Shown in pieces: positions 2,935-58,724 of a DNA stretch of 64,000 nucleotides (position 1 is its first letter; each line of letters opens with the position of its first letter). Below the pieces are notes generated by a model, which was given only the letters and a program-made list of their open reading frames with translations, made no database searches and was not told where the DNA came from. The stretch is from Candidatus Zipacnadum vermilionense (GTDB lineage Bacteria; Armatimonadota; Zipacnadia; Zipacnadales; Zipacnadaceae), in the NCBI GenBank assembly GCA_029821755.1, contig JALGSV010000002.1, positions 18,591-82,590 of the forward strand, written 5' to 3'. The translations under genes and the position numbers were made by a program.

Positions 2935-2940
2935 CACGTG

Positions 2941-7706: not shown

Positions 7707-7719
7707 GCCCGGCGAGTCT

Positions 7720-9726: not shown

Positions 9727-9735
9727 ACGGCGACT

Positions 9736-9765
9736 GGCCGGCCCGACAACTTCGCCGGGCCGGCC
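9736..9765. terminator. intercistronic hairpin GGCCGGCCCG-N10-CGGGCCGGCC
   Basis: Perfect 10-bp inverted repeat between the FN3 membrane-protein gene and the barrel gene on the minus strand. Confidence 0.4.
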
Positions 9766-9778
9766 GAGGAGTCGGCGG

Positions 9779-11193: not shown

Positions 11194-14064
11194 TTACCGC
11201 GTCACCTCGAAGCTGGTGACCAAGCTGTTGGCCTGGCCGCTCTCCGGAGAGCGCGCAGTGATCTGGCACAGGTAGCGCCCGGACGGCACCCGGGTCCCGC
11301 TATCGCTCCGGGCGTTCCATAGTACGGTGTTGACCCCTGCGGTCCCCACCTGCCCGATGCTCACGCGGCGGATGACCACGCCGGCGATGTTACGGATCAC
11401 GACGTCCACACTCGCCGACGACGCCAGCGCATAAGTGAGAGCGAGTTGCCCCCCCGGCGCGGCCTGCGCTTGGACGCTCGTAAGCAAAGCGGCCGCCGAT
11501 CCCCGCGGCTGCGCCACTATCTTGAACAGCCGGCTTCCCTCTTCCATCATCTGGAAGGAATACGCCGCCGTTGTGCGCATGTAGCACCGCGTGCCACTGG
11601 CCACATCCTCCAGGATCAGCGTGTACTTCTCCGGCACCGCCGACAGGTCCGGCCAGGCCACGGCCAGATTGCGCTGGGCGCCGGCGGAGGTAACCTGCAG
11701 GTACCAGGTCTTCTCATTGCCGTCGTCGGCCTTAAGGTCCACCATGCGCTGCTCTCCGCCGCCTCCGGCGGAGACGAAGGCCGCCTGCAGACCCGTGCCG
11801 AAGGGCGAGGGCGGTGCGAGCAGATCCCGAGCATCCGCCCCATCCTTGGCCTCGCGTGCCACCCCGAAGGCCCGCACCATCGTCGCCGCACCTCCACCGC
11901 TGACGGTGATCCCCGCCCGCCAGCCGTTGGCCGCTGGGCTCACCTGGGCTATCGGAGCCGCGCTTACGCCCACCGCACTGGGCGGCGGCACCAGCAACTC
12001 GGTATCGTCATACGCCAAGATCCAGTAGCCCACGAACGGGTCCAGCCGTACCTTGGCTAACTGCTCCTCCCACCCATACTGCCTCGTCATCGGGTCGTAA
12101 TCAAACACCGTAGGCTGCAGCAGCGCCCGGCCGATCGCCTCCGCCATGGTCAACTGCCCACTGTCGGAGCTGATCACCTGCATGTCCCGCAGGTAAACTG
12201 GCAGGATGAACGGGTTCCCGATCTGATTCCAGCCCTTGGTCAGCGAGATGCTGACCGACGTGAGGCTCGGCACCGGCTGGGCGTCCGCCGGCAGCACGAT
12301 CTGCTGCTGCGCCCGGTTTAGTAGCCAGTACCCCTTCCCCACCGCCACGTTGGTCACAAAGGGGTTGGGGAACCAGCGATAGATGAGCGACAGCGGGTCC
12401 CAGCGAATCAGCGCTCCGAGTTGTCCCGGCTGCAACCCGCCCAGGCTCTGGAAAACGTGTTCCGCGTCGCTGTTGGTGAACTCGTAGGGGATGGAGATCA
12501 TCTCCAGCCCGTCGGGTGAAGGCCGCGGATTGATCACTGGGACCGAGGGTATGGTGATGGTCCGGTCCACCGCGCGCCCCCGGGGTCCGGTCAAACCCAC
12601 CGTCACTACTCCCGGCCGCGCCCCGCTGGCGCTGACATTCCAGACTGCCCCCACGAACCCGTCCCGCGGGATCGCCCCGAAGGCCTGGGTTTGCGGCTGC
12701 GTATCCGGTGACAGGGTCAACCCCTCCGGCAGCCTGATGCTCGCGCTGGTCCCCGCCAGGGCGGATGCGCCGAAGTTGTCCACGAAAATCCCCATCGGGA
12801 AGGGCGAGCGCCCCTGCCCGTCGGCCAGGTAGCAGCTCTCGACGATGTCCGGAGTCGAGGGATCGTCTCCGGCGGCTTCCTGCAGGCGCTGCGGGCCGTA
12901 GCCCATCGTCGCGAAAGTCGGCTCGTAGTTGGCCGTCGAGGCCCCAAAGGCAAGGTATGTCACGTACCGTCGCGAAGCGCCCGCCGGAAGGTTGAGCTCA
13001 TTCCACTTGACTCCCACACCCCAGTCCTGCCCCACGATAGACAGCGCCGGGTTCGGGACGAAGTCGAAGTTCGCACCCGCCAGACGCGCCCACATCCCAA
13101 TCTCCACTGCATCCGGCACCCCCGCCGAGGACCCGGCCGTGTTCCGCTGGCGTACCTCCGGCGCATCGAGTACACCTTTTACCGAGATCAGCGGGTTAGT
13201 GGGATCGTCGTACGCCACCCAACCGGTCGGCATCACCCCGGCGCCCCCCGACAGCACGCGCTCGTTGCGGATAGTCGTCCCGTCCGGCAGTATGACCGAC
13301 GTCCCGTCGCGTACGCCGGCCCCGCCGAAGCCGGTGTCGAACCCCCAGCGCACCCCTACACTATGTGGCTCGGCGGTGGTGTTGGTCACGATAAGCTCGA
13401 GCATCAGCGCGTCGCCCACCAGCTCGTAATTGTGGTAGACAGTCAACGAGTCGTCTATCGGGACTTGAAGCGGCACCACCGGCGGCTCCACCGGCGGCTC
13501 CACCGGCGGCTCCAGCGGGTCGTCTATGTCACCTGTGTCGTCTCCGCCTTGATCGGTAAGCGGCACAAGCGAAGTTCCCCTCGCTGCGCGGGTGGTGGCG
13601 GTCAGCGGCACCGGCCAGTAGCTGGGCAGCGTACCGGGATCGGCGGCCGTCTCTGCCTCGTTCATGGCCGCGTACGTATCGAACAGTAGCGCCTCGCCAT
13701 CTTCTACCGTAGCATCCACGGAGAACTGCAAGAAGGAGGTGAAGCCGGTAAAGTCGTTCGTATCGTTGAACGCCTTGCTGGCGATAGCCACGTCCTCATC
13801 GCCGGTCCGAGTGGGGTCGCCCCCCCGGGGGGCGAGCCGTCCCGTCAGCAATTGGAACCGGCCCGCCGGCCGAACCCAGAAGTCAGTCCCCACGGACACC
13901 ACTTGCGGTGCGCCGATCTGCATCCGCATTAGTCCGCCGGGCTGGGAGATGTCCAGCATCGACTGGGCCGCGGCCGGGCCCGACAGCGCCACTGCCGCGA
14001 AAGTGCAGACCAGGGCCATCACACCTGCGATGAGCATCTTCTTCGATATAAGGCTACAGTGCAC
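11194..14064 (-). CDS. giant secreted protein (956 aa) with shared C-terminal modules and FlgD-Ig/T9SS-like C-terminal domain
   Basis: Signal peptide, Pro-rich linker (PVEPPVEPPV). A C-terminal ~450-aa region is shared with the 14098 and 20934 gene products, including module A (SIPYEF...RW.P..Y..P...GYWL) and the CTD ...RNIAGVVIRRV...WNARSDSGTRVPSGRYLCQITAR. Confidence 0.6.
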   Translation of the reverse strand: MHCSLISKKMLIAGVMALVCTFAAVALSGPAAAQSMLDISQPGGLMRMQIGAPQVVSVGTDFWVRPAGRFQLLTGRLAPRGGDPTRTGDEDVAIASKAFNDTNDFTGFTSFLQFSVDATVEDGEALLFDTYAAMNEAETAADPGTLPSYWPVPLTATTRAARGTSLVPLTDQGGDDTGDIDDPLEPPVEPPVEPPVVPLQVPIDDSLTVYHNYELVGDALMLELIVTNTTAEPHSVGVRWGFDTGFGGAGVRDGTSVILPDGTTIRNERVLSGGAGVMPTGWVAYDDPTNPLISVKGVLDAPEVRQRNTAGSSAGVPDAVEIGMWARLAGANFDFVPNPALSIVGQDWGVGVKWNELNLPAGASRRYVTYLAFGASTANYEPTFATMGYGPQRLQEAAGDDPSTPDIVESCYLADGQGRSPFPMGIFVDNFGASALAGTSASIRLPEGLTLSPDTQPQTQAFGAIPRDGFVGAVWNVSASGARPGVVTVGLTGPRGRAVDRTITIPSVPVINPRPSPDGLEMISIPYEFTNSDAEHVFQSLGGLQPGQLGALIRWDPLSLIYRWFPNPFVTNVAVGKGYWLLNRAQQQIVLPADAQPVPSLTSVSISLTKGWNQIGNPFILPVYLRDMQVISSDSGQLTMAEAIGRALLQPTVFDYDPMTRQYGWEEQLAKVRLDPFVGYWILAYDDTELLVPPPSAVGVSAAPIAQVSPAANGWRAGITVSGGGAATMVRAFGVAREAKDGADARDLLAPPSPFGTGLQAAFVSAGGGGEQRMVDLKADDGNEKTWYLQVTSAGAQRNLAVAWPDLSAVPEKYTLILEDVASGTRCYMRTTAAYSFQMMEEGSRLFKIVAQPRGSAAALLTSVQAQAAPGGQLALTYALASSASVDVVIRNIAGVVIRRVSIGQVGTAGVNTVLWNARSDSGTRVPSGRYLCQITARSPESGQANSLVTSFEVTR

Positions 14065-14097
14065 TGATCGCTCTCTCCTCTCGCCGGCTTCCCTGGA

Positions 14098-17000
14098 TTA
14101 GGGGAATACCTCGAAGGGCCGGATGGCTTGCACCGTCTGGCCCTTGTCCGTCCGGGCCGTCAGGCGCACCACGTAGCGCCCTGCCGGCACCTTGCTGCCG
14201 CGATCGCTGCGGCCGTTCCACACCAGCAACTCCACCGCTCCCCCCGCCGTGAGCTGGGGGCTGAACTGCTTGATGAGCAACCCCGAGATGTTGCGGATCT
14301 CCGCTGTCACCTCGGCAGGCTGCGACAGCGCGTAGGTAAAGGCCACGCCGCCGCCCGTTATCCCTTGCGCGCTGACCCCGCTCAGGCTCAACCCGCCCAC
14401 CGCTTCCGTCGAGGCGATGATCCGTACCCGCCGCGTGCTGCCCTGCGGCCCCGAGTTGAAGCTATAGCCCGCCGAGGTCCGCATGTAGATCTCCTCACCG
14501 GTGTCCAGATCCTCCAGCAGGAGGGTGACCCCGGCGGGGACGGTGGCGTTCAGCTCCGGCCAACGCAAGGACACCTCGGAGTTGGGCTGGGCGCAGGCGA
14601 TCTCCATATCCCATTCCTGCCGCCCCGAAGCGGGTCTAACTATCTGCGCGTAGTACGCCGACTCGTCGCCCCAGTCCCTCTCCACCAGCGCTGCACGCAG
14701 GCTGCTATCCACCGCCGGCGGCTTCCCCACAGCCCAGAAGGGGCTGTACGCGGCCGTCGCCTTGGTGTTCATGCCGATGTAGTTGCATGGTTCGACTACG
14801 CCGTTGGCGGTCGCCACCAGTTGTAGCCGCCATCCCTCGCCACCCTCGGTCGGCCGCGGCGTCGCCGTCTGCGTGGCGATCACCGGCGCGTAGATCACCA
14901 GCGTCGTATCCTTGCGCACCCGCAGCCAGTAGCCCTGGAACGGCTCCAACATCGCCGAGAAAGGATCTGCCGAGAATGTATAGTAGCCGCCCGAGGCGGT
15001 GCTGCGGAACCCGAAGAGAACGCCGTCGGTCACCCCGGAACTGATCGCTTCGGCCAGGGTCTCTCGCTTGCCGGCGGTCACGAACTGCACGCTGCCGAAA
15101 TCGACCGGAGTAAGGAAGGGACAGCCGATCATGTTCCAGCCCCGCGGCTCGCGGCTTCCCATGAGTAAGTTGATGTCGTACTGCGTCAGCCCCGCGACCG
15201 GAGCCCCGGTGATGTTGAGAGTCGTCGCCCGCGGCAGGCGCACAAAATAACCTATTCCCGCCGGCGGTTGGGGCACAACCTGTGCTGGCCCCGATGCGTC
15301 CGGCGGGTCGAAGGTCGCGTAGGGGTCGGGGTACAGGTGATACTGAGTGTCCCCCGGCCACCAGCGCGCCAGCCGGACCTCCTCGCTGGATAGCCCGAAC
15401 ACCTGGCTGGGGTCAGGGAAGCTGCCCGGCGCGTAGGTGTAGGGCAGCGAGAACAAGTGGATGCCCGCGTCCATCCTGGGCAGGGCCACCCGGAAATTGG
15501 ACAGCGCGGTCACCGACCGGTTGCCGTCCTGGTCCGCCACCGAAAGTGTGAGCTGATGGCTGGCCAGGGTTAGCGACGTCGTTACCTGGAAGGTGAGCAC
15601 GCCGCTAGTCGCGTCGAAACTGTAACCGGTGAGCTGCCGGCCATCGATCGCCAGCAGAATGCTGGCGGGGTCGATCCCGGTGCCGGTGTCGATGAGGGAG
15701 GCGCGGATCAGCGGCGTCCGGGTGTTGATGGTCGTGCTGTTCTGCGGGAAGATAATGGTCACCGTCGGCAGATCAGTGTCCCGTCCCGCCTGCAAAGTCA
15801 AGCGACCCTCCCCATAGGTGTTGCTGGGCGGAGAGGTGTCGGTTGGCAGCGGCTTGGCCAGCATCAGTATAATACGCCGCAGGTCCGCCCCAGTCCGACT
15901 AGGGTTCTCTGAGTACAGCAGGGCCGCGGCTCCGGCGACATGCGCCGCACTAGCGGACGTGGACAGGAAGGGGGTATAGGCGGCCAGACTGGTCGTCACC
16001 CGGTCCGGCCCCACCATATTCGGCTTGCGCGAGCCACCCACGGTCGGCCCCTGGCCGCTATAGAGCTCAATGTCGTCTATCCCCGGTGCCGGCGGCACCC
16101 CCGCCGTACCCGCGGTTGCCCCCACCGTCAGGGCCCGGGACGACATGGCGGGGATTGGCAGGCTGGTGGCGGCTACCGCCACGCTGACCGGCAGGTTCGC
16201 CGCCGGCGTATACAACTGGAACTTGTCCGGTTGCATCAGATCCGCCCGCACCGCCTTGATCCGTAACTCATGGACTCCCGCCGTGATGACCTGTGCGATC
16301 AGCGTTTCCCGCGGGGGTGTGGCGCCGTTCTGGGACACGCCCGAATCCGCGATCAGGGTCGTGCCCTGCCACAATTGCAGGTTGTAATCCTGCGAGGTAA
16401 CCGCTCCGGCGGTTTCATACCATGATAGAAAGGCCGTAAACTCGCCCGCCGGCAGGTCGAGGCTGACACCGGTATTGGTCTCGATGTCGCAGAAGGTGTC
16501 GCTGTTCACGTCAACAAAGGTTCCCTGCCAGTGGCGCTGGGCCAGGTCTCCCGAAGCCTGCACCCATAGCACCCCGCTGTCGCTCGCCGTGGCCACTGCC
16601 TGCGAGATCATGTCACTACCGTCGAAGGGCCCGTCGACCGTCCCCACGGTGTTGACGACAGCGGTATACCGGTTCGTAGCTACGTAGTTGATCGCCTGCC
16701 GCAGGGAGAGCGCGGTGTCGACCGCGATGAGGATGAAGTTAGCCTGCGGAGCCATGTCCGCGGCCACCTCCGCGGCGGCCGTCCCCAAGGCATCGGTGCC
16801 CATGGTGCCGTCCGCGCGGAAGGACACTTGGGCGGGCGTAGGGATCTCTGCGTCGACAGCTCCGGCAAACCCCTCCGCGATGATGCCGATATTGGCGCCA
16901 GCCCCCGCGATGCCGAGGGACTGGTATGAGGAGGCGTTCGTTAGCTGTACGCCTTCACTCACGTTGGCCCCGAAGCCAAAGATCGCCTGCTGCGGCCGCA

Positions 17001-17424
17001 CGGAGCTCCCCTGCGAGGCGTGCATCCCGGCGAGAGGCAGCCGAGGCCCCACCACCGGCGTCGGAAGGGTAACGCAGGCCACTCCGGGCAGCGCTGCCAG
17101 TGCCTGTAGCTTGCCGCCGGCGATCTGCCCTTGCACCCGCTGCGCCGTCTCAAATTGTATCTGCAGGCCAGCCAGCGACAGGCTGGCCAGCGAGGCTGGC
17201 TGCCTCTGGTCCAGCCACACCTCCACCACTACCGGACGTCCTGCCCAGACAGCGGACATGGCATACGGCTGCAGCACTCCGCTGAGCGATCCGGCAACGG
17301 CCGGTGCCCCCATCAGCGCCCCCGGCCCCACTGCCAGCAAGAGAGCGGATGACATCATAACGATACTCGGCCTCAGGTGACTCGTCGCTTGCTTATCGGA
17401 CTTCACCTCGCAGACCTCCCTCAT
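14098..17424 (-). CDS. giant secreted protein (1108 aa) with subtilisin-like (S8) domain and shared C-terminal modules plus FlgD-Ig-like CTD; alternative start 17358
   Basis: STSASAAHVAGAAALLYSENP closely matches the S8 Ser-region GTSMAAPHVAGAAAL. The Asp and His motifs were not clearly found, so it is possibly degenerate. The C-terminal region is paralogous to 11194 and 20934. Confidence 0.55.
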   Translation of the reverse strand: MREVCEVKSDKQATSHLRPSIVMMSSALLLAVGPGALMGAPAVAGSLSGVLQPYAMSAVWAGRPVVVEVWLDQRQPASLASLSLAGLQIQFETAQRVQGQIAGGKLQALAALPGVACVTLPTPVVGPRLPLAGMHASQGSSVRPQQAIFGFGANVSEGVQLTNASSYQSLGIAGAGANIGIIAEGFAGAVDAEIPTPAQVSFRADGTMGTDALGTAAAEVAADMAPQANFILIAVDTALSLRQAINYVATNRYTAVVNTVGTVDGPFDGSDMISQAVATASDSGVLWVQASGDLAQRHWQGTFVDVNSDTFCDIETNTGVSLDLPAGEFTAFLSWYETAGAVTSQDYNLQLWQGTTLIADSGVSQNGATPPRETLIAQVITAGVHELRIKAVRADLMQPDKFQLYTPAANLPVSVAVAATSLPIPAMSSRALTVGATAGTAGVPPAPGIDDIELYSGQGPTVGGSRKPNMVGPDRVTTSLAAYTPFLSTSASAAHVAGAAALLYSENPSRTGADLRRIILMLAKPLPTDTSPPSNTYGEGRLTLQAGRDTDLPTVTIIFPQNSTTINTRTPLIRASLIDTGTGIDPASILLAIDGRQLTGYSFDATSGVLTFQVTTSLTLASHQLTLSVADQDGNRSVTALSNFRVALPRMDAGIHLFSLPYTYAPGSFPDPSQVFGLSSEEVRLARWWPGDTQYHLYPDPYATFDPPDASGPAQVVPQPPAGIGYFVRLPRATTLNITGAPVAGLTQYDINLLMGSREPRGWNMIGCPFLTPVDFGSVQFVTAGKRETLAEAISSGVTDGVLFGFRSTASGGYYTFSADPFSAMLEPFQGYWLRVRKDTTLVIYAPVIATQTATPRPTEGGEGWRLQLVATANGVVEPCNYIGMNTKATAAYSPFWAVGKPPAVDSSLRAALVERDWGDESAYYAQIVRPASGRQEWDMEIACAQPNSEVSLRWPELNATVPAGVTLLLEDLDTGEEIYMRTSAGYSFNSGPQGSTRRVRIIASTEAVGGLSLSGVSAQGITGGGVAFTYALSQPAEVTAEIRNISGLLIKQFSPQLTAGGAVELLVWNGRSDRGSKVPAGRYVVRLTARTDKGQTVQAIRPFEVFP

Positions 17425-48517: not shown

Positions 48518-51500
48518 ATGACTCGCACCTCCCTGCTTCTGCTGCTTGGTTTGAGCGTCACTGCCGTCTCCGCGGCCCCTACGCAGACCTTTCGCCTCCA
48601 GGAATACCTCGGCCACACCTGGAGCGACGAGCTTATTAGTTACCCTCTGGCGCCGGAGTTGGCCAGGGCCACCTCCCTGTCCGTCACCGACGCGGCGGGG
48701 CAGGCGGTGCCCTACCAGCTAGACGCCGGGCGGGTCTACCTGGTTGTCACCCTACCCGCCGACGGGGAGCTGTCGTTCACTGTAACCGACGGCGAGACCA
48801 CCGCACTGCCCGACCCGGCCGTGACGACGAAGGAAGAGGGCGGGTTGCTGACCCTTGACAGCGGCGTGCTGGCCGTGCGGCTGCCGGCGGGGCAGGAAAC
48901 CTTCCCCCAGCCGGTGTCCGCCGATACCGTTCCCGGTCCCTTGCAGGGCGTCCGAGGCATGACTGGCGGCTGGATCGGCAAGTCCTGGCTCTCCGCCCCG
49001 CTCAAGGTCACCGGTTACACCACCACCCTGAGCGCCTCCGGCCCGCTGTTCGCCGAGGCGACGGTGGACTACACCTTCGAGGGCGACAAGCACTACCGCT
49101 TCACGCTGCGCGCCATCGCCGGGCAGCCCACCGTGATCATTGACGAGTCCATGGACCTCAACCCCGGTGGCGCCTACTCGATCGCCTCCTACGATAACGA
49201 CGCGGATGCCTCCACTTGGGAATGGTGGTGGATAGACGCGGCGGAGGCCATTCACCCGGCGACCGCTTACTTCTCCTTCTATTCGGGCCTGGAGCCCAAC
49301 CAGTGCCGCTGGACCGGCCACCATGCCACCCAACCCCGCAAGGGCATGAACGCCGAGGGCGCCATCATGACCAACAGCGCCGAGACGAACGCCGTGGCCT
49401 ACGCCCCTCTCCCCTACGACCAGGACGAGATGTGGAACCGCGTCTCCGGCTGGTGGGTTAATTCCTTTGGCGACCGCTCCAACGAGTTCCTCTTCTACAA
49501 CGACCGCGACCCCAACACTCCGGTCATCTCGATCAGCCGCGGCCGCCCCAGCCGCAACCTCAACCCCCAGATCTCGCCGGTGGCTGAGCCCTGGGTCAAG
49601 ATCACCACAGCGCTCAACGACCTGCGCGTCTGGACCAAGCCGACCCCCGACCTGCAGGTCCTCGCCCCCATCTGCCTGGGCACCCGTGAGTGGTTGCTTT
49701 CCGTGGAGCCCCAGACCACCCTCGTCCCCAAAGGCACCGCCCAGGCGTCCAGCGCCTACCGCACGATGATCAAGTACGCCTACTTCCCTCTCGACAAGAT
49801 CAAGGACTGGAGCTTCGACTGGCCCGAGCCGGCCAACGCCTGGCCCCGGATGTTCTGCAAGACGGGAGATCTGCAGGCCATGCGCGACCGCGTCGCCGCC
49901 GCCGGGGGCGCGCAGGCCACCGCCCCCAACATCCCCTACCTCTATCGCGCCAAGTGGACCCCCGACGACGTTGTCAAGCAGTGCCTGGCGCCGATGAAAG
50001 CGGTCGTTGACGCCGCCTTGTCGGGGATGGCCGGCAGCGGCAGCATCAACTGGTTCCACGCCTCCCTGCACATGATGTCCTTCATGCCGCTGTGGGAGGG
50101 GGCCATGGCCACCCCGGACCTGGACCCCGCGGTGCGCGCCAAGCTCAAGGCCTACGGGGCCTTCATTGCCCAGCGCGCCTGGGACGACGACTACTGGCCC
50201 CCCAAGGAGACCGGCAACGGCTGGGGCTCGGCGAATATGGGCATCCTCGCCGCCGGGGCCCGGGTCCTGACGGCCGCCGCCATGGCCGGACACCCCCGCG
50301 ACGCCGCCTGGCTCCAGCGCTGCCAGGGCTACCTCCACGGCAACCTCCAGGGGCTTCTCGCCCCCGACGGCTCCGGCCTCTCCTGCCCGCACTACCTGGG
50401 CGCGAGCGTTGACCCGGTCCTGTACATGGCCCTGGCGCTCAAGTACGGCGGAGACTACGACGTCTTCGAGACCGACCCCCGCATGGCCAAGTTCGGCCAA
50501 TTCATGATCGACGTATTGACCCCGCCCGACCTGCGCTCACCGATTGGCGGGCCTGGCCATGGCCTGTCCCTGGGCGCCACGCTGGACCCCCAGGCCGTCA
50601 ATCGCCGCAACCTGTGGCCTCTCGGCCATACCTCCCGCACCGAGACCACCGGCATCCTGGACATGCTGGCGCTGGGATATGCGGGCGTCAACGAGCCGCT
50701 GGCGGGGGCGCTACGCTCCATGGCCGCCGAGATGGGCGGCAACTCCAGCCAGGGCTTCGTGGCCTACGCGCTGATGTCCAACACCTCCTCCCCGCTGGTC
50801 AAGCCCGACCTGCACACCCGTTGGTACCCCGCCTACGGCGCCTTCCTGCGCGACCAGCAGCCTATGGAAACTTGGCTGGCCGTACGCTACTCCAAGTTCG
50901 CCTTCGACCACTTCCAGGCCGACACCGGCGCCTTCACGCTATTCGCCCAGGGCGTGCCGCTGATGATGGACTTTGGGTCGATGTACTCTCCCGAGAACGG
51001 TCAGGCGGTGTACCACAACCGCATCGCCTGGAATGTGCAGGAGGGACCGCAGAAGCCCTGCCCCGGCAACGGCGGCCCCGGCTGCTTCTACCAGGGCTTG
51101 ACCTATTTCGAGCACGAGTTCGAGCCGTGGACCGACCAAATCGAGGCCCCGGGCACCGGCATGGGGATCATTGACCACTACGGCGAGATCAAGGCCTTCT
51201 CCAGCCTGCCGGAGGCCGACTACCTGCTCGGCCAGGTGGACGTCAAGGCCCTGGAGTCGGAGCCCTACTTCCCCGACACCCCCGTCGGCCGCGCCGGCGA
51301 CCCCACCCAGGCGCGCAAAATCAAGGACGTCCCGCCCTTCTCCTGGCTGCGGCGGATAATGACGGTGAAGGCCACCCAACCGGAGCAACCGTCGTACCTG
51401 CTGGTGCGCGACGACTTCACCGCCCCCTGCCCGCCGCCGATGGCCAGCTACTGGGTGATGGCCAACAGCCTCGAGTTCGCCGGCAACCAGGCCCACGCCA

Positions 51501-52102
51501 CCGGCCAGTTCGGCGTAGACCTCGACCTGTACTGCGCCCAGCCCGCCGCGCCCCAGTTCAGCCAGTGGGCCTGGGAGCACAATAACTGGGGCGGCGAGAA
51601 GCAGCTCTGCGTCCGCATCACCCAGGCCGAGGGCAAGCCCTTCCTGGTAGTGCTGTACCCGAGGAAGGCCGGGGAGCCGGCACCCCAGTTCGAGACGATC
51701 GCGGACGGGAATGGCGTGAAGGTGACCTACGCCGACGGAGCCGTGGATTATGCGTTCCTCGGCCCGGGAACCGTAGACTTCGCCGAGGGGGACCTCGCCT
51801 TCCACGGAGTCGCGGGATTTCTGCGCGTGTCCGGCGAGGCTGTCTCGGTCGCGCTGCCCCAGGGCGGCAGAGCCACGCTGGCCGGCCTGACGCTCGAGGC
51901 GGCGGAGGCGGCAAGCCTGCGCTGGCGAGCCGGGCGGGGCGAGTTGAGAACTGGGGCGCAGGCCCAGACGCTGCGCCTCTCCGGCAAGCTTCCGGCCGCG
52001 CCCAAGGTGACTCTCGATGGGAAACCGCTCTCGGCCACCATGCAGAACGGTGTCCTAACGGTGCCCGTCCCCGTCGGCGAGCACGAGATTGTCATCAGGT
52101 AG
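48518..52102 (+). CDS. secreted heparinase II/III-like polysaccharide lyase family protein (1194 aa)
   Basis: AGGAG lies 7 nt upstream of ATG; signal peptide. DTGAFTLFAQGVPLMMDFGSMYS matches the heparinase II/III pattern (D.GsF.l...G.pL..D.G...Y). Confidence 0.45.
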   Translation: MTRTSLLLLLGLSVTAVSAAPTQTFRLQEYLGHTWSDELISYPLAPELARATSLSVTDAAGQAVPYQLDAGRVYLVVTLPADGELSFTVTDGETTALPDPAVTTKEEGGLLTLDSGVLAVRLPAGQETFPQPVSADTVPGPLQGVRGMTGGWIGKSWLSAPLKVTGYTTTLSASGPLFAEATVDYTFEGDKHYRFTLRAIAGQPTVIIDESMDLNPGGAYSIASYDNDADASTWEWWWIDAAEAIHPATAYFSFYSGLEPNQCRWTGHHATQPRKGMNAEGAIMTNSAETNAVAYAPLPYDQDEMWNRVSGWWVNSFGDRSNEFLFYNDRDPNTPVISISRGRPSRNLNPQISPVAEPWVKITTALNDLRVWTKPTPDLQVLAPICLGTREWLLSVEPQTTLVPKGTAQASSAYRTMIKYAYFPLDKIKDWSFDWPEPANAWPRMFCKTGDLQAMRDRVAAAGGAQATAPNIPYLYRAKWTPDDVVKQCLAPMKAVVDAALSGMAGSGSINWFHASLHMMSFMPLWEGAMATPDLDPAVRAKLKAYGAFIAQRAWDDDYWPPKETGNGWGSANMGILAAGARVLTAAAMAGHPRDAAWLQRCQGYLHGNLQGLLAPDGSGLSCPHYLGASVDPVLYMALALKYGGDYDVFETDPRMAKFGQFMIDVLTPPDLRSPIGGPGHGLSLGATLDPQAVNRRNLWPLGHTSRTETTGILDMLALGYAGVNEPLAGALRSMAAEMGGNSSQGFVAYALMSNTSSPLVKPDLHTRWYPAYGAFLRDQQPMETWLAVRYSKFAFDHFQADTGAFTLFAQGVPLMMDFGSMYSPENGQAVYHNRIAWNVQEGPQKPCPGNGGPGCFYQGLTYFEHEFEPWTDQIEAPGTGMGIIDHYGEIKAFSSLPEADYLLGQVDVKALESEPYFPDTPVGRAGDPTQARKIKDVPPFSWLRRIMTVKATQPEQPSYLLVRDDFTAPCPPPMASYWVMANSLEFAGNQAHATGQFGVDLDLYCAQPAAPQFSQWAWEHNNWGGEKQLCVRITQAEGKPFLVVLYPRKAGEPAPQFETIADGNGVKVTYADGAVDYAFLGPGTVDFAEGDLAFHGVAGFLRVSGEAVSVALPQGGRATLAGLTLEAAEAASLRWRAGRGELRTGAQAQTLRLSGKLPAAPKVTLDGKPLSATMQNGVLTVPVPVGEHEIVIR

Positions 52103-52351
52103 GCGGTCGCGGACCCCAGGAACCTCCTCTCCCAAGCGTGCCCACGTCCGCGTGGTCCGCGCGGGAGAGGGGGCAGGTGGTGAGGCGCCGCCCCCGGACA
52201 CCGCTTTGCAGAACGGCGCCACTAGGCCACGGGGAACCGGTCTCCAGACCGGTGTCGGCTGGCACCTCCCGATGAACCCTCTCTCGCCCTCCTTCGTCCC
52301 CATACCAGTACACCATCCCGCGCCTCTCATCGCTGACGGGAGGGTCTCACT

Positions 52352-53557
52352 ATGAGCGTCTTGAGCTACCGCTATGTCGTTGTCGGAGCCGGGCTGGCCG
52401 GAGCCTCGGCCGTGGAGGGGATCCGCGAGGTCGACCCGGAGGGGTCCCTTCTGCTGCTCGGCCACGAGAAGCACCTACCCTACGATCGCCCCCCGCTGTC
52501 CAAGAAGTTGTGGTTCGGCAAGATGAAGCTCGAGAAGGTCTATGTCCATCCCGAGGAGTGGTACATGGAGGCCGGCGTCGAGGTGCTCCCCCATGTGGAC
52601 GTCGCCGGTCTGGACCCGGCGGCCCAGCGCCTCACCACCGCTGGCGGGCGGCAGTATACTTACGAGAAGCTGCTGCTGGCCACCGGCGCCACGCCCCGCC
52701 CCCTCCCCCTCCCCGGCGGCGACCTGGAGGGGCTTTACTATTACCGCTACCTCGATGATTACCTCCGCCTGCGCGAGCAGGTGACGGCGGGCGCCCGCGT
52801 GACGGTCATCGGCGGCGGCTTCATCGGCTCGGAGATCGCCGCAGCGCTCAATATGAACCACGCCGCAGTGACCCTCCTCTACCCTGACCCCTACCTGGTG
52901 GACCGCGTCTTCCCCGACTACCTGGGCCGAGCGCTGGAGGAGCACTGCCGCGGCAAGGGCGTCCGCCTCCTGCAGGGCCAGCAGCCCGTGGCGCTGGAGC
53001 GGGAGGGCGAGCAGTACGTCACGGTCACCGACACCGATGAGCGAATCGTTTCTGACGCGGTGGTCATCGGCATCGGCGTCACCCCCAACCTCAGCCTCGC
53101 TGAATCGGCGGGGCTGCAGGTGGGCAACGGCGTCGTGGTGGACGAGTACTGCCGGACCTCCCACCCCAACATCCATGCGGCGGGCGACGTCGCCCTCTTC
53201 CCCTACACCGCCCTGGGCCAGACCCGCCGCATCGAGCACTGGGACCATGCGATCAACCACGGCAGGCAAGCTGGCCGCAACCTGGCCGACGCCGGGGCGC
53301 CGTATGACTACATGCCCTACTTCTACTCCGACCTGTTCGAGTTCGGCTACGAGGCGGTAGGCGACGTCAGCTCCCGCCTGACGACCTTCGCCGACTGGCA
53401 GAAAGAGAACGACACCGGCGTCATCTACTACCTGCAAGAGGGCCGGGTGCGCGGAGCTATGATGTGCAATGTCTGGGACCAGGTCCCCGCCGCCCGAGAG
53501 CTAATCCAGTCCGGGAAACAGATGACCGAGGCGGAGCTGAAGGGAGCGATCTCGTAG
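52352..53557 (+). CDS. FAD-dependent pyridine nucleotide-disulfide oxidoreductase (ferredoxin/rubredoxin reductase or AIF-like)
   Basis: YVVVGAGLAGASA dinucleotide-binding motif, a second Rossmann motif VTVIGGGFIGSEIAA, and AAGDVA. Confidence 0.7.
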   Translation: MSVLSYRYVVVGAGLAGASAVEGIREVDPEGSLLLLGHEKHLPYDRPPLSKKLWFGKMKLEKVYVHPEEWYMEAGVEVLPHVDVAGLDPAAQRLTTAGGRQYTYEKLLLATGATPRPLPLPGGDLEGLYYYRYLDDYLRLREQVTAGARVTVIGGGFIGSEIAAALNMNHAAVTLLYPDPYLVDRVFPDYLGRALEEHCRGKGVRLLQGQQPVALEREGEQYVTVTDTDERIVSDAVVIGIGVTPNLSLAESAGLQVGNGVVVDEYCRTSHPNIHAAGDVALFPYTALGQTRRIEHWDHAINHGRQAGRNLADAGAPYDYMPYFYSDLFEFGYEAVGDVSSRLTTFADWQKENDTGVIYYLQEGRVRGAMMCNVWDQVPAARELIQSGKQMTEAELKGAIS

Positions 53558-53676
53558 GGACGGCTTTCCGGGCTTCGGAGCCGGGACAGCCGCCCGTTCG
53601 GTGCGCGATCAGTTAGCGAACGGGCGTGTGTTGCGGTGAGCACACCGCAAAACGCGCCCCTACAGGAGGGAACATC

Positions 53677-53997
53677 ATGTCCCTGGCCGAGGAAGACTGC
53701 GCGCCCCCGGAGGGCCTTCCGGCCCTGACCGCCGCCGAGGCCTCGGCACTGCTCGCCGAGGTCTCCGACTGGACCCTCGCCGACCAGGCTCTGACCCGCG
53801 AGCTGCTCTTCCCCGATTTTCCAGAGGCCATCGCCTTCGTTGACCGCCTCGCGGAGGTCGTTCAGGCCCAGGACCACCATCCCGACATCTGCATCTCATA
53901 CCGCAAGGTCCGCCTGACCTACACCACCCACAAAGCCGGCGGCCTCACCCGCAACGACTTCATCATGGCGACCAAGACGGACAGGTTGCAGAAGTGA
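53677..53997 (+). CDS. phhB: pterin-4a-carbinolamine dehydratase (PCD/DCoH)
   Basis: QDHHPDICISYRKVRLTYTTH and GLTRNDFIMATKTD match the PCD signature. GGAGGG lies 6 nt upstream of ATG 53677. Confidence 0.85.
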   Translation: MSLAEEDCAPPEGLPALTAAEASALLAEVSDWTLADQALTRELLFPDFPEAIAFVDRLAEVVQAQDHHPDICISYRKVRLTYTTHKAGGLTRNDFIMATKTDRLQK

Positions 53998-54094
53998 CAG
54001 GTGATAGGTGATGGCTGGTAAATGGGGCCCTGAGCCCGCGCCCTAGTCCCTTTCCTTGCCCGCCATTTACCATCAATCACTCCTCCCAAAACCC

Positions 54095-54835
54095 ATGACG
54101 AACCTCACCAACCACACGGCTCTCGTCACCGGCGCGGCCAAGCGCCTCGGCCGGGCCATCTCCCTGGCCCTGGGCCGGGAGGGCGCCAATGTGGTGCTGC
54201 ACTACCGCTCCTCCCACGAGGAGGCCGAGGCCTTGGCCGGCGAACTGGAGGCCATGGGCGTCCACGCCTGGACGGTGCAGGCGGATTTCGCCGACCCCGC
54301 ACAGACCGAGTCGCTGGTCGCTCGCGCCGGGGAACTAGCCGGGCCGCTGGACCTGCTGGTCAACAGCGCCTCCGACTTCCCGCCCAGCACGATGGCGGAG
54401 GTAAGGTGGGAGGACCTGCAGCAGCAGCTAGCGGTCACCGCCTGGGCGCCTTTCGAGCTCTGCCGCAGCTTCGCCCGCCAAGCAGCGGCTGGCAGCATCG
54501 TCAACCTGCTCGACTCGCGCGTGACCGCCTCGGACTTCAGCCATGTCGCCTACCTCTGGGCCAAGCAGCTTCTCGCCCATATGACCAGCCATCTGGCCCT
54601 CACTTACGCGCCGGGGATAACCGTCAACGGCGTAGCTCCCGGCCTGATTCTACCGCCGCCCGGCCAAGACGATTCCTACCTGGAGGCCCTGGTACACACC
54701 GTCCCCCTCCGCCGCCACGGCGCCCCGGAGGACATAGCCGCCGCCGCCGTCTTCCTCCTTAAGAGCCCCTTCATCACGGGGGAGGTCATCTTCGTAGATG
54801 GAGGCCGGCATCTGGAGGAGAGGGAGAGGGCGTGA
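54095..54835 (+). CDS. SDR-family pteridine reductase-like oxidoreductase (PTR1/FolM-like)
   Basis: TALVTGAAKRLGRAISLAL...VVLHY closely resembles the PTR1 N-terminus (ALVTGAAKRLGRSIAEGL...CLHY). SDR catalytic region is present. Confidence 0.7.
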   Translation: MTNLTNHTALVTGAAKRLGRAISLALGREGANVVLHYRSSHEEAEALAGELEAMGVHAWTVQADFADPAQTESLVARAGELAGPLDLLVNSASDFPPSTMAEVRWEDLQQQLAVTAWAPFELCRSFARQAAAGSIVNLLDSRVTASDFSHVAYLWAKQLLAHMTSHLALTYAPGITVNGVAPGLILPPPGQDDSYLEALVHTVPLRRHGAPEDIAAAAVFLLKSPFITGEVIFVDGGRHLEERERA

Positions 54836-54987
54836 CGGGCGACGGTGTCAGCAGGGAAACGGGAACTACACCCCTCGAAGGTCGGCTCTCTGAACCTTTC
54901 CCTCCCGCCTGCGTCCTCCAGTTGACCTTGGCGTGGCGATGTCCCTGACCGCCAGGCTAGTATGACACGTCGAAAGGAGATCGCAAG
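54836..54987 (+). promoter_or_regulatory. structured 5' leader of the DUF2769-like gene carrying motif GTGTCAGCAGGGAAACGGGAACT; candidate cis-regulatory RNA
   Basis: 5' CGACGGTGTCA pairs with TGACACGTCG located just before the AAGGAG SD. The motif is shared with the folB leader (55326..55389). Confidence 0.3.
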
Positions 54988-55266
54988 ATGAGCCAAGTCG
55001 CCAGATCGAAAGAGAACCTGGGGAAATGTATGTGCATGAAATGTCCGACCTACACCTTCATGTGCAAGATGAGGAACATGCCGGGGAACATGATGGCCAT
55101 GATGGGTGATCTGGAGAAGAAGGAGCATGTCGAGGCGATGTACTGTGCGTTTGAGCAAAGCAGATGCATGGACGAAGAAAAGGGCTGCATCTGCGAGGAA
55201 TGCCTCGTACACAAGGAGAACGGTCTCGACAAAGCCTACTACTGTATGGCTACCGGCGGCAGATAG
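54988..55266 (+). CDS. small Cys/Met-rich protein, DUF2769-like (putative metal-binding)
   Basis: 92 aa with 10 Cys and 11 Met (CMCMKCP, MMAMMG, CICEECL, YYC). AAGGAG lies 7 nt upstream of ATG. GC content is clearly lower than the flanks. Confidence 0.6.
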   Translation: MSQVARSKENLGKCMCMKCPTYTFMCKMRNMPGNMMAMMGDLEKKEHVEAMYCAFEQSRCMDEEKGCICEECLVHKENGLDKAYYCMATGGR

Positions 55267-55325
55267 AGTCTGCCACGGTTCGCTGATGCGACCCTAGTTG
55301 ACTAGCACAGAAAGTTGCGGCCGCC

Positions 55326-55389
55326 GACCGTCAGTGTCAGCAGGGAACGGCAACTGCTGTCGTCTGACGTTGCCGACTGACACTGACGA
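55326..55389 (+). promoter_or_regulatory. compact structured leader immediately upstream of folB: perfect 12-bp closing stem CGTCAGTGTCAG/CTGACACTGACG enclosing motif GTGTCAGCAGGGAACGGCAACT
   Basis: Inverted repeats read from the sequence. The element ends 3 nt before the folB ATG, so it could occlude translation initiation. Confidence 0.35.
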
Positions 55390-55391
55390 CT

Positions 55392-55751
55392 ATGCCCGCC
55401 TACCGCATCTACATCACCGACCTGACGGCCCGCTGTGTGCTCGGCGTCTCCGCGGAGGAGCGGCGCGAGAAGCAGGAGGTCGTCATCAACGTGGCGCTCT
55501 CCGCCGACCTGAGCGCCGCCGCCGCCAGCGACCGCTTTGAGGACACCCTCGACTACCGGACGCTGAAGAAGGTGATGCTGGCGATGGTCGAAAGCTCGGA
55601 CTACTACCTCCTGGAGGCGCTGACCGAGCGGGTCGCGGACCTGTGCCTGCAGGATGCGCGCGTGCAGCGGGTGACAGTAAGGATCGAGAAGCCCTCGGCC
55701 CTGCGCTTTGCAAGGAGCGTGGGGGTGGAGGTGGAGAAGGGGCGATTGTAG
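55392..55751 (+). CDS. folB: dihydroneopterin aldolase
   Basis: YRIYITDL...VLGVSAEERREKQEVVINVAL...DTLDYRTLKKVM...LLEALTERVADLCL...KPSALRFARSVGVEVE matches the FolB family pattern. Confidence 0.8.
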   Translation: MPAYRIYITDLTARCVLGVSAEERREKQEVVINVALSADLSAAAASDRFEDTLDYRTLKKVMLAMVESSDYYLLEALTERVADLCLQDARVQRVTVRIEKPSALRFARSVGVEVEKGRL

Positions 55752-55776
55752 GGCGCGGGCTCGTACCGCGCCCTAC
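55748..55776. repeat. REP-like palindrome type B GTAGGGCGCGGGCTCGTACCGCGCCCTAC between folB and folK
   Basis: 10-bp stem. A related unit occurs at 60993 and a variant at 63398. Confidence 0.7.
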
Positions 55777-55795
55777 AGCGGAGGGAGACGCCCCT

Positions 55796-56362
55796 GTGCC
55801 TCGCGCCTTCATCGTTCTCGGCTCCAATCTCGATCCGGAGCGCCATATCCCGGCGGCCCTGCGCCGCCTGGCGGAAACCGTCCACCTGGTGGCTGTCTCA
55901 ACCTTCTACGTCTCCCCGGCCTTGGACCGTCCGAAGCAGCCGGACTTCTACAATGGCGCGGTCGCGATCGAGACCGACCTGCCGCCCCGCGAGCTGAAGT
56001 TCGTCGTCCTGCGCAAGATCGAGGCGGAGCTGGGCCGACAGCGAAGCGCCGACAAGTTCGCCGCGCGCGAGATCGACCTGGACCTGGTCTGGCACGACGG
56101 CCTGACCCTCAACGAACCAGACCTAGTGCTGCCCGACCCGGAGATCCCTGCTCGTCCCTTCTTGGCCGTGCCGCTGGCTGAGTTGGCCCCGGAGTTTTTC
56201 CCGGCGGAGGCCCGGCCGGCCGACCCGCACTTGCGCCCCCTGCCCGATTTCACCGCCCGCCTCCGAAAGGAACTGCTCAATGAACCACGAGAAGGTACAG
56301 AAGCTCATTCGCGAATTGCTGGTGGAGATGGGCGAGGACCCCGATCGCGAGGGTCTGGTTGA
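55796..56362 (+). CDS. folK: 2-amino-4-hydroxy-6-hydroxymethyldihydropteridine pyrophosphokinase (HPPK)
   Basis: [11 protein letters not shown]...[32 protein letters not shown]...REIDLDLV...[19 protein letters not shown]. Probable GTG start at 55796. Overlaps folE by ~80 nt in another frame. Confidence 0.75.
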
Positions 56363-56852
56363 CACCCCGGCGCGCGTCGCCAGGTCCTACGAGTTCCTCA
56401 CTAGCGGCTACCACCAGTCACAGGCGGAGATCATCGGCAGCGCGGTCTTCACTCAGCAGGTTGACCACATGGTGATCGTACGCGACATTGAGCTGTACAG
56501 CCTGTGCGAGCACCACCTGCTGCCCTTCTTCGGCCGCTGCCACCTCGGCTACATCGCCGACGGCACCGTCCTGGGGGTGAGCAAGCTGGCGCGGCTGGTG
56601 GACATGTACGCCCGGCGCCTGCAGATTCAGGAGCGCCTTACCGAACAGGTGGCACAGGCCATCATGGACCAGGGCGCCGCCGGCGCCGGCGTAGTTATCG
56701 AGGCCCAGCACCTCTGCATGATGATGCGCGGGGTAGAGAAGCAGAACTCCTTGATGACCACCAGCGCGGTCCTGGGCACCTTCCGCCACTCCCCGACCAC
56801 ACGGAACGAGTTCCAGACGCTAATCGCGAGGTCGCGCCCGCGTACGGACTGA
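56280..56852 (+). CDS. folE: GTP cyclohydrolase I
   Basis: [59 protein letters not shown], and [25 protein letters not shown] match the FolE signatures. Confidence 0.9.
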
Positions 56853-56918
56853 CCGGCGGTGCGCACCCGCACCTGCGGCTTGCAGGTATCGGCGGGAGAG
56901 CCGGAGCAATACTCTTCT

Positions 56919-58724
56919 ATGACGACCCCGCACCTTACGACAGGTGATGAGCCCATGGATACTGAAACCCTACCTTCTGGCGCCCGGTTTGCTTTCTGGG
57001 AGGATGAGACGGTCTACCGCGCCGTTTTCCACGTAGATCAGCAACATCCCGCTGCCTCCGACGACAATCCGGGTAGGGAAGAAGCGCCTTTCCGCACTAT
57101 CAACGCCGCGGCGCAGCGGTTGCAGCCGGGAGAGAAGGTGGTGATCCACGCCGGCCTCTATCGTGAATGCGTGCGGCCGGCGCGAGGAGGCACGGGACCG
57201 GAGGCGATGATCGCCTACGAAGCCGCACCCGGCGAGCGCGTGGTGGTGCGCGGGTCCGAGGTCTGGACGCCGTCGGCCCGCCCCAGTGCTGGCTATGCGC
57301 TACGGCCGACCCCGGAGGGCGCCCCCTGGATGGCGGAGTTGCCCGAGATCTTCAGCGAAGACTACAACCCCTTCCTCCTGCGCAACGCCTATGACTACCT
57401 GGAGCAGTACGGTAACCTGAGCGACAAGCGGTTCCTCCGGCGAGCTTTGCAGCGCCGCGGCATGGTCTTCGTCGACGGCGTGCCGCTGGAGCAGGTCTAC
57501 CGCTTCCGCGACCTGGCGGGGCACGCCGGGGCTTTTTGGGTGGAGGAACCGGGCCGACGCCTGCACGTTCGCCTGCCCGGGGATGCCGACCCCGCGCAGC
57601 ACAAGATCGAGGTGACGGCGCGCGAGCAGATCTTCGCGCCGCGCGAGTTCGGCCTGGGCTACCTGCGCGTGAGCGGCCTCCTCTTTGAGCACGCGGCGGA
57701 CGGCTTGCCGGTCCCCCAGCGCGCCGCGGTCAGCACCATGCGCGGACACCATTGGATCATCGAGAACTGCGAGGTTGCCTGGGCCAACGCCTGCGGGATG
57801 GATATCGGCGCTCAGACCTGGGATGCCACCGTCCCCGATCCCACCGGAGGCCATATCATCCGGGGCAACACCATCCGGCAGTGCGGCGTGTGCGGCTTGG
57901 CCGGCGCCCTGGGTGTGCACCACACGCTGGTCGAGGGCAACACCTTTGAGCATATCGGGACCCTGAACCTCGAGCGGATGTGGGAATGCGCCGGCCTCAA
58001 GTTCCATCTGGCGGAGCACTGCCTGATCCGGGGCAACGTGTTCCGCCACCTTCACAACGCCCTTGGTCTCTGGCTCGATTGCAGCAACGTGGACAACCGA
58101 GTCACGGGTAACGTGTTCACTGATATCGAGACTCTCGCCGCCGCCGTCTACATGGAGATGAATTTCGAGCGGAACCTGGTTGACCACAACGTCTTCTGGG
58201 ACATACGCTCGGCGGACCCCGCCGGGGACAGTTCCGGACATTCCGGGTCCGCGATTCGCTCCGACTGCAACGAAGCGCTCCTCGTGGCGCACAACTTCAT
58301 CGGCCGTACGCAGGGGTACGGCATAGACTTCTCCCTGAACCAGAGTGATCGGCGTCACGAGGGGCGTACCGGCTTGTGCCGCGCCAACGAGGCCTACAAC
58401 AACGTCCTCTACCGCTGCCCCCATCGCGTGCACCTGGGCCGGCGGGAGGAAAACTGCAGCGACGGCAATCTGTTCGACTTGACCGATGACCAGTATTCCT
58501 TTGAGATCGCCTTCCCCGCGCCGGGGTGCTATCAGAATCTGGCCGGCTGGCAGCGCTACTTCGACCTCGATCTGCACTCCGCTCAGGCCCACCTGTCCGC
58601 GGAGGTCGATCCGGAGACCGGCGATCTCAATTGGAGCACCGACGGCTCGCTACCGACAACGCAGCCGGTCGACGCCCTGCCGGAGAGCGCCCACCGCCGC
58701 AGGCCGGGTCCCTCCCGGGACTGA
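56919..58724 (+). CDS. right-handed parallel beta-helix (pectate-lyase fold) protein
   Basis: Repeated PbH1-type turns (NCEVAWANACGMDIG, GNTIRQCGVCGLAG, GNTFEHIG, GNVFRHLHNALGLWLDCSNVDNRVTGNVF). Start uncertain: ATG 56919 or 56955. Confidence 0.55.
   Translation: MTTPHLTTGDEPMDTETLPSGARFAFWEDETVYRAVFHVDQQHPAASDDNPGREEAPFRTINAAAQRLQPGEKVVIHAGLYRECVRPARGGTGPEAMIAYEAAPGERVVVRGSEVWTPSARPSAGYALRPTPEGAPWMAELPEIFSEDYNPFLLRNAYDYLEQYGNLSDKRFLRRALQRRGMVFVDGVPLEQVYRFRDLAGHAGAFWVEEPGRRLHVRLPGDADPAQHKIEVTAREQIFAPREFGLGYLRVSGLLFEHAADGLPVPQRAAVSTMRGHHWIIENCEVAWANACGMDIGAQTWDATVPDPTGGHIIRGNTIRQCGVCGLAGALGVHHTLVEGNTFEHIGTLNLERMWECAGLKFHLAEHCLIRGNVFRHLHNALGLWLDCSNVDNRVTGNVFTDIETLAAAVYMEMNFERNLVDHNVFWDIRSADPAGDSSGHSGSAIRSDCNEALLVAHNFIGRTQGYGIDFSLNQSDRRHEGRTGLCRANEAYNNVLYRCPHRVHLGRREENCSDGNLFDLTDDQYSFEIAFPAPGCYQNLAGWQRYFDLDLHSAQAHLSAEVDPETGDLNWSTDGSLPTTQPVDALPESAHRRRPGPSRD

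Follow-up and report, generated by a model that had tools for sequence, protein, structure and literature searches.

A DUF2769 Gene Inserted into a Pterin Operon Encodes a Candidate Metal-Thiolate Protein

Introduction

Does a small protein rich in cysteine and methionine, encoded inside a pterin/folate operon, belong to pterin metabolism, or does it merely share the address? The locus that raises this question lies in a 64,000-nucleotide stretch of a Candidatus Zipacnadum vermilionense contig, which is called the window here. A first-pass annotation, made from the letters alone, had proposed a recently acquired candidate copper- or zinc-binding protein next to pterin genes. The pterin genes that it had named were all recovered (Pterin_4a, a pteridine-reductase-like SDR, FolB, HPPK and GTP cyclohydrolase I), and the genes around the reading frame are the following.

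52352-53557: ferredoxin-reductase-like FAD protein
53626-53997: pterin-4a-carbinolamine dehydratase (PCD; Pfam Pterin_4a)
54056-54835, forward strand: pteridine-reductase-like SDR, the upstream neighbour (Pfam adh_short_C2; the best NCBIfam models, PRK09134 and the pteridine reductase model PRK09135, both below cutoff)
54988-55266, forward strand: the Cys/Met-rich reading frame
55392-55751, forward strand: folB, dihydroneopterin aldolase (Pfam FolB, E = 1.5e-31)
ending at 56362: folK, HPPK
56280-56852: folE, GTP cyclohydrolase I

Results

The Reading Frame Encodes a DUF2769 Protein

The reading frame begins with an ATG at position 54988 and encodes 92 amino acids; its product has no signal peptide. 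All motifs quoted in the first-pass annotation are present in the translation (CMCMKCP at residues 14-20, MCKM at 25-28, MMAMMG at 35-40, CICEECL at 67-73 and YYCM at 84-87). Its count of 10 Cys was also correct (positions 14, 16, 19, 26, 53, 60, 67, 69, 72 and 86), but the 11 Met that it reported proved to be 13, the initiator included. Background frequencies taken from ten neighbouring proteins are 1.1% for Cys and 2.1% for Met, and against these the binomial probabilities are 7e-8 for the Cys and 8e-8 for the Met content of the product. Among the 325 six-frame ORFs of at least 60 aa in the window, it ranks first in the fraction of Cys plus Met.

The Pfam search assigned the protein to DUF2769 (PF10967), the family that had been named as the one to look for, with E = 8e-14 and 52.4 bits against a cutoff of 22.8. 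The match is full-length, as positions 1-57 of the 57-position profile align with residues 14-87. The reading frame is a real 92-residue DUF2769 gene and the only one within the window. No NCBIfam model matched the protein.

DUF2769 is a known but uncharacterised Cys-rich family, to which the window protein adds one member. An exhaustive profile search (E<=1e-3) returned 401 clusters at 50% identity. The family comprises short forms of ~70 aa and long forms of ~92-105 aa, and the window protein is a long form. These are stand-alone small proteins, since no other Pfam domain was fused in any of 48 profile hits. Nineteen homologues with 47-74% identity span bacterial and archaeal phyla, which speaks for a real protein. 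In a scan of one genome per species, we found 80 loci with long-form relatives (40-71% identity). Their bacterial hosts are Nitrospirota, Chloroflexi/Dehalococcoidia, Deltaproteobacteria, Bacillota, Acetobacterium, Sporomusaceae, gut Alphaproteobacteria and a Moranbacteria (candidate phyla radiation) MAG; the archaeal ones are methylotrophic Methanosarcinales and an Aenigmatarchaeota MAG. Judging by the genome names, almost all of the hosts are anaerobes. Literature searches for PF10967 and IPR020075 returned no papers, and none was found that addresses DUF2769 function. The sole experimental datum found for the family is a Methanosarcina mazei DUF2769 small protein, which was detected by proteomics exclusively under heat stress (PMC12704099).

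Eight Cysteines Are Invariant and the Methionines Are Not

The conservation of the residues was read from an alignment of 121 DUF2769 sequences. The elements of the gene are given below, all on the forward strand.

54975-54979, forward strand: AGGAG resembling a Shine-Dalgarno site, 8 nt upstream of the ATG, as read from the sequence
55027-55044, forward strand: first CxCxxC(P) motif (C14, C16, C19, P20), with the three Cys invariant in 121 members and P20 kept in at least 90%
55060-55143, forward strand: Met-rich segment, residues 25-52, containing C26; mostly a subfamily-specific insert, missing from the ~70-aa short forms
55144-55167, forward strand: invariant C53 (YCAF) and the coupled C60
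55186-55203, forward strand: second CxCxxC motif (C67, C69, C72), invariant
55243-55245, forward strand: invariant C86 (YYC)

The framework of the family is thus CxCxxC ... C ... CxCxxC ... C, and all eight of its invariant cysteines (C14, C16, C19, C53, C67, C69, C72 and C86) are present in the window protein. Of the 121 sequences, 90 have three Cys between the two CxCxxC motifs and 25 have one, with six exceptions. Gain or loss of C26 and C60 therefore usually goes together, which suggests that the two contact each other or share a site. The N-terminal consensus kCiCxxCPsy and the C-terminal consensus kGCiCxxCpV align as an internal repeat with an hhalign probability of 95.7%; as short Cys-rich profiles inflate hhalign scores, this is supportive and not conclusive.

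The Met-rich part behaves differently from the Cys framework. The insert of about 20 residues is specific to a clade of the long form, and most members have alignment gaps there. Met makes up 15-24% of this loop in the close clade of the window protein, 3-9% in more distant relatives of equal length and 2.6% in the short forms, against 2.1% in the rest of the protein. In other DUF2769 proteins, the Met positions of the window protein are mostly occupied by I, L or V. A high Met content was also seen in other, independent long forms (21% in P0123 and 17% in P0058). Met enrichment is therefore a recurrent feature of the family but not a defining one. The MxxM/MM spacing in residues 25-39, from which the first-pass annotation had read Cu(I) binding, argues only weakly for it, since beyond the close clade these residues are replaced by I, L or V or the loop is missing.

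The Gene Was Inserted between the SDR Gene and folB

When the SDR of the window was used to scan metagenome contigs, 24 loci were returned. The closest syntenic relative, L089, shares the gene order of the window, and the identities are 79% for a 1194-aa protein, 76% for the FAD reductase, 73% for the SDR, 84% for FolB, 61% for FolK and 82% for FolE. The SDR stop codon and the folB ATG are 12 nt apart in L089, where neither the DUF2769 gene nor the dehydratase gene is present. The SDR gene is followed directly by folB in ten more relatives (L091-L096, L099, L100, L107 and L112), with tblastn gaps of 13-66 nt. Since these 11 relatives have the SDR gene directly before folB, the 556 nt that separate the two genes in the window are a lineage-specific addition. 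Its main features are as follows.

54836-55391, forward strand: segment of 556 nt from the SDR stop to the folB start, replacing the far shorter junction of L089 and the ten other relatives
54845-54867, forward strand: flanking direct repeat, upstream copy, GTGTCAGCAGGGAAACGGGAACT, an exact 14-mer being common to both copies
55334-55355, forward strand: flanking direct repeat, downstream copy, with one gap and one mismatch against the upstream copy over 23 nt
55329-55388, forward strand: imperfect hairpin of 60 nt with 24-nt arms, an inverted repeat with 83% complementarity that ends 3 nt before the folB ATG and has no U-tract

The composition of the gene was compared with its surroundings. 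The claim that it is a GC outlier was borne out, with about 51.6-51.8% GC in the ORF and 66.5% in the window. We then generated 5000 simulated versions of the ORF, keeping its amino acids and drawing the codons according to the usage in ten neighbouring genes. The expected GC content was 57.7 ± 1.1% against the observed 51.8%, and the expected GC3 was 0.89 ± 0.03 against 0.75, a value as low being reached in 0 of the 5000 simulations. The codons TGT and AAA are each used ~4 times as often as the host usage predicts. It follows from the simulation that ~60% of the GC dip is due to amino-acid composition and the remainder to foreign codon usage. The step from outlying composition to acquisition therefore stands for the codon usage but not for the larger share of the GC drop. 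The recent acquisition itself was supported by the codon bias together with the lack of the gene from the SDR-folB junction of the 11 relatives. The nearest homologues (70-74% protein identity) sit on contigs with 46-54% GC. Nucleotide similarity to other DUF2769 loci ends at the ORF boundaries; with L116 and L030, the homology begins at 54973 and takes in the AGGAG.

The insert is bracketed by the 23-nt direct repeat, GTGTCAGCAGGG(A)AACGG(G/C)AACT, at 54845 and 55334. Its two copies aligned locally with a score of 34, the best of 1000 shuffles having scored 26, and no further copy of the motif was found in the window. The downstream copy forms the left arm of the 60-nt hairpin, and a miniature, much smaller hairpin is present at the SDR-folB junction of L089. 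In comparison with shuffled sequences, the upstream flank folds no better (z = -0.06) and the downstream flank marginally better (z = -1.56). A promoter and terminator scan of 53400-57000 gave nothing, with no terminator-like site on either side of the ORF, and an Rfam scan of 52000-58000 (E<=1) gave no riboswitch or other RNA in the flanks. As to the vehicle, no RYYYAAC/GTTRRRY cores of an integron attC site were seen on reading the hairpin, no extra copies that would mark an IS or MITE occur in the window, and no recombinase or transposase is encoded in the 556 nt. Judged from sequence, the DUF2769 gene is a lineage-specific horizontal insertion, presumably from a donor of lower GC content. 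The hairpin at 55329-55388 could occlude the initiation of folB translation.

Several further observations concern the operon and the window. The cluster of genes for the FAD protein, SDR, FolB, FolK and FolE recurs (52352-56852 in the window, 3679-7307 in L089, and also in L091, L094 and L095) with about 42-84% identity, and its SDR-folB gaps are short, those of the other relatives being similar to that of L089. The nearest named relatives of the FAD reductase are from Armatimonadota and Nitrospirota MAGs (57-59% identity). L089, which has a 120-nt AIF-SDR gap instead, lacks the dehydratase gene at 53626-53997, and so does every one of the 24 SDR loci. This gene is the second to have been added to the cluster in a lineage-specific way, and its function is coherent with pterins. 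The reading frames of folK and folE share 83 nt (56280-56362). The folK and folE tblastn matches in L089 overlap by 41 nt, which suggests that the overlap or coupling is conserved. The 1194-aa protein, encoded at 48518-52102 and found in L089 as noted above, has an apparent signal peptide and no Pfam domain. Two large proteins encoded at 11194-17424 (955 and 1107 aa) have C-terminal FlgD_ig-like domains, with a subtilase domain in one of them as well.

Pterin Genes Are Absent from Other DUF2769 Loci

The first-pass annotation had connected the protein with the pterin genes and proposed their co-occurrence in other genomes as a check. Such a linkage was not found. When PCD, FolB, FolK and FolE of the window were compared by tblastn with 88 DUF2769 loci, no match was obtained, and no pterin gene was called in the further loci. 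Since about 100 other DUF2769 loci in all have no pterin gene, the co-location in the window is incidental. The conserved co-occurrence expected of a component of the pterin/folate operon is lacking on two counts, 0 of 88 loci and the 11 relatives whose operon has no DUF2769 gene.

The Predicted Fold Is Helical and Has No Match among Solved Structures

A shallow alignment of 20 sequences gave an unusable AlphaFold2 model (pLDDT 47.5), which was remedied by the use of 121 sequences. The resulting model is compact and mostly helical, with a pLDDT of 92.7 and a pTM of 0.81. The predicted helices lie at residues 8-13, 24-39, 49-55 and 73-77; strands of at least three residues are absent. A comparison of the model with the PDB gave no structural match, including ferredoxin, rubredoxin, HiPIP and zinc ribbon structures, and PDB sequence searches with both family profiles gave no meaningful match.

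These results bear on three assignments that the motifs invite. The zinc ribbon, to which the paired cysteines had been attributed in the first-pass annotation, did not survive: the confident model is predicted to be mostly helical and resembles no solved zinc ribbon or other structure. A zinc-ribbon or rubredoxin-like knuckle fold, which would call for two beta-hairpin CxxC knuckles that form a Cys4 site, was rejected in the same way. Homology to SmtA, suggested by the CxCxxC...YYC pattern, was rejected at an hhalign probability of 2.7%; PF02069 did not match the window protein even at E<=10, and the SmtA control scored 75 bits. Membership of the 2x[4Fe-4S] ferredoxins was rejected because the spacing of the cysteines differs from CxxCxxCxxxCP and no structural match was obtained.

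Metal and Redox Genes Recur near DUF2769 Genes

The neighbourhoods of other DUF2769 genes are highly variable. Within 1.5 kb, 172 Pfam families were found among 141 genes of 44 diverse loci, and no family occurred in more than 5 of the 44. Variable surroundings of this kind, with no fused domains, are what a monocistronic accessory gene typically shows. The themes described below, metal and redox, were picked after the fact.

P1B heavy-metal ATPases are encoded within 6 kb of the DUF2769 gene in six independent loci (L004, L015, L018, L022, L039 and L053), and five of the six exceeded the cutoff of the Cu-type NCBIfam model. None was found in 167 kb of control DNA or in ~45 DUF2769 loci of gut Alphaproteobacteria. 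The expectation for 0.99 Mb is 0.7-1.3 such genes, if 2-4 per 3-Mb genome are assumed by our own estimate, and 6 were seen. The enrichment is suggestive and post hoc. In L015, the DUF2769 gene lies within an apparent copper-resistance island (4911-10729). This island encodes a secreted protein with Gly/Met-rich repeats, DUF302, a P-II-like protein and a CopA that is extended at its N terminus by a Cys-rich segment; upstream of it lies a proton-type P3A ATPase gene (2287-4803). By sequence reading, an HMA-like CxxC chaperone adjoins the ATPase in L018, and an ArsR-like repressor is encoded next door in L022. Two small neighbours have the Pfam domain HTH_5.

Redox enzymes form the other theme. 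A protein of ~495-516 aa with rubredoxin and Glu_synthase FMN domains is encoded 10-655 nt away in L023, L029, L047 and L053 and at 3 kb in L038, and these five loci span bacteria and archaea. Its domain architecture is the same as that of Clostridioides difficile CD0828, a product of the rbr-sor-perR operon with a part in protection against H2O2 (PMC11980386). Pyr_redox_2 enzymes occur within 3.6 kb in six loci, including the 52352-53557 protein of the window. FMN_red is encoded upstream in L121, where Redoxin is also nearby, and a similar-looking protein in L022. Genes for SOR, rubrerythrin and a flavodiiron protein were found near the DUF2769 gene of L001, those for HSP20 (next door), SOD, DJ-1 and glyoxalase in L114, and that for Thioredoxin_3 in L117. 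SelO is present in two DUF2769 loci of Negativicutes.

Long and short DUF2769 paralogues stand in tandem in L010 (2356-2994, a Moranbacteria MAG), L114 (5686-6285, a metagenome lineage) and L121 (6001-6797, Woesearchaeota). Their occurrence in three unrelated lineages hints at a heteromeric pair. In gut Alphaproteobacteria (L035, 6352-6888, and about 25 other loci), the DUF2769 gene is followed on the same strand by a gene for a helical protein of about 160-320 aa. This partner is constant whatever lies upstream, and it belongs to no Pfam family and offers no functional clue. In most of those loci, a Peptidase_U32 gene comes next on the opposite strand.

Discussion

We propose that the window protein is a stand-alone cytoplasmic metal-thiolate stress protein of anaerobes, which was acquired and acts outside pterin chemistry; we trust this reading about as much as we doubt it. 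The two CxCxxC(P) motifs together with C53 and C86 would give eight invariant thiolates, to which the optional pair C26/C60 would add two. One or more metal ions (Zn, Fe or Cu(I)) could be bound by these thiolates within a small domain of mostly helical structure. The protein might then buffer soft metals and/or oxidants, in the manner of a metallothionein, when anaerobes are under stress, and the Met-rich helix-loop may add thioether ligands or sacrificial antioxidant residues in the clade of the window protein. The gene would have come by horizontal transfer from a donor of lower GC content and landed between the translationally coupled SDR gene and folB, so that it is probably co-transcribed with the pterin operon; the protein would take no part in pterin chemistry. 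Metal binding is plausible because of the invariant Cys framework and the genomic context, with P1B ATPases near six loci. The role in stress is suggested by the neighbours, and specificity for Cu is unproven. The apparent restriction to anaerobes and the Cys-Pro motif speak against the metal-thiolate reading to this extent, that they fit an Fe-S protein equally well.

That fit makes a small Fe-S or rubredoxin-like electron carrier the main rival, although we consider it rather unlikely. It would pass electrons between flavoenzymes (the rubredoxin-Glu_synthase FMN protein, an FMN reductase, FAD-dependent disulfide or ferredoxin reductases) and enzymes that detoxify ROS. Eight invariant Cys equal two Cys4 sets, the hosts are, by their names, almost all anaerobes, and CxxCP recalls the Cys-Pro motifs of ferredoxins. 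The CxC spacing is unusual for the ligation of cubane clusters, however, and the predicted model has no fold similarity to ferredoxin, rubredoxin or HiPIP in the PDB. Among the neighbours, the FMN protein adjacent in four loci and within 3 kb in a fifth, across bacteria and archaea, argues for the carrier, as do FMN_red in L121 and its look-alike in L022. CD0828-type proteins have been proposed as electron donors in ROS defence (PMC11980386). The Pyr_redox_2 enzymes of six loci carry less weight because this family is very common, and the FAD reductase of the window predates the insertion, since it is also encoded in L089, which has no DUF2769 gene. An alternative that sets electron transfer aside is a structural zinc module that would work as an adaptor, regulator or redox switch, in the way of Hsp33 or the ZAS motifs of anti-sigma factors; its hydrophobic Met/Leu/Ile helix would be a surface for protein-protein contacts. 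The hydrophobic character (I/L/V/M) of the Met positions, not fixed as Met across the family, is consistent with it. So are the tandem long and short paralogues of three lineages, which suggest hetero-oligomers, and the constant helical partner gene of gut Alphaproteobacteria. The detection in M. mazei under heat stress only (PMC12704099) and HSP20 next door in L114 point the same way. We nevertheless regard this module as unlikely, as no regulator or sigma factor is consistently adjacent, the 48 hits contain no fused domains and the anaerobe bias is left unexplained.

A further reading is that this lineage has drawn the protein into its pterin metabolism, where it might supply or buffer Zn for FolE, whose gene lies 1 kb downstream, or act as a redox partner of the SDR. 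FolE enzymes of type IA depend on Zn, and some Zn chaperones, COG0523 proteins among them, have a link to FolE. The gene lies on the same strand inside the SDR-folB-folK-folE operon, with no terminator-like site on either side, and SDR genes also neighbour DUF2769 genes in L001 and L034. SDRs are ubiquitous, however, and the SDR of L034 is only 26% identical to that of the window, that of L001 not being detectably similar. The lack of PCD, FolB, FolK and FolE from all 88 loci and the contiguous SDR-folB pair in eleven relatives make such recruitment highly improbable. A wider combination of these ideas, which we offer only tentatively and think less likely than not, is that DUF2769 represents a new fold of polynuclear metal-thiolate protein found only in anaerobic bacteria and archaea, be it a metallothionein, a buffer of Cu(I) or Zn, or a small carrier of the Fe-S type. 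Under oxidative and metal stress, it would work together with P1B exporters and CD0828-type rubredoxin-FMN enzymes. The window copy would then have been captured by the pterin operon and may have FolE, which depends on Zn, as an additional client.

In the window, an attractive association with pterins is thus corrected to an incidental one, and the Cys/Met-rich gene is a passenger, acquired horizontally, that splits a translationally coupled SDR-folB pair. The family itself is widespread: its roughly 400 clusters at 50% identity come from methanogens, acetogens, Dehalococcoidia and gut anaerobes. Its fold is predicted with confidence and has no solved counterpart, and no function is assigned to the family. 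The recurring flavoenzymes of ROS defence, heavy-metal exporters and genes of heat and oxidative stress provide a concrete, testable hypothesis for it.

The preferred metal-thiolate reading can be set against known systems. Like small 2x[4Fe-4S] ferredoxins and rubredoxins, the window protein is small and has eight conserved Cys, a Cys-Pro motif, relatives in anaerobic hosts and flavoenzyme neighbours; unlike them, it carries CxCxxC in place of CxxCxxCxxxCP or CxxC...CxxC, and its predicted helical fold has no neighbour in the PDB. The MxxM/MM spacing recalls the Met-rich Cu(I) sites (MxxM/MxM) of CopC/PcoC, CusF and Ctr1, and Cu-type P1B ATPases are encoded near some homologues. CopC/PcoC, CusF and Ctr1 are periplasmic or extracellular, and Met-rich Cu(I) sites are typically periplasmic. 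The window protein differs from them in having no signal peptide, and its Met residues are not conserved across the family; the likeness is one of motif. With SmtA/BmtA (PF02069), it shares a small size, a cytoplasmic location, about 10% Cys, CxCxxC and YYC-type motifs and the proposed metal-thiolate chemistry, and ArsR/SmtB-type regulators or metal exporters are found at some DUF2769 loci; it differs in that no homology is detectable and no His ligands occupy equivalent positions. The closest likeness is to other DUF2769 proteins, with which it has in common the full-length match above the gathering score, the eight invariant Cys and the stand-alone architecture, whereas its gene, unlike those at the other DUF2769 loci examined, lies inside a pterin operon of a high-GC genome.
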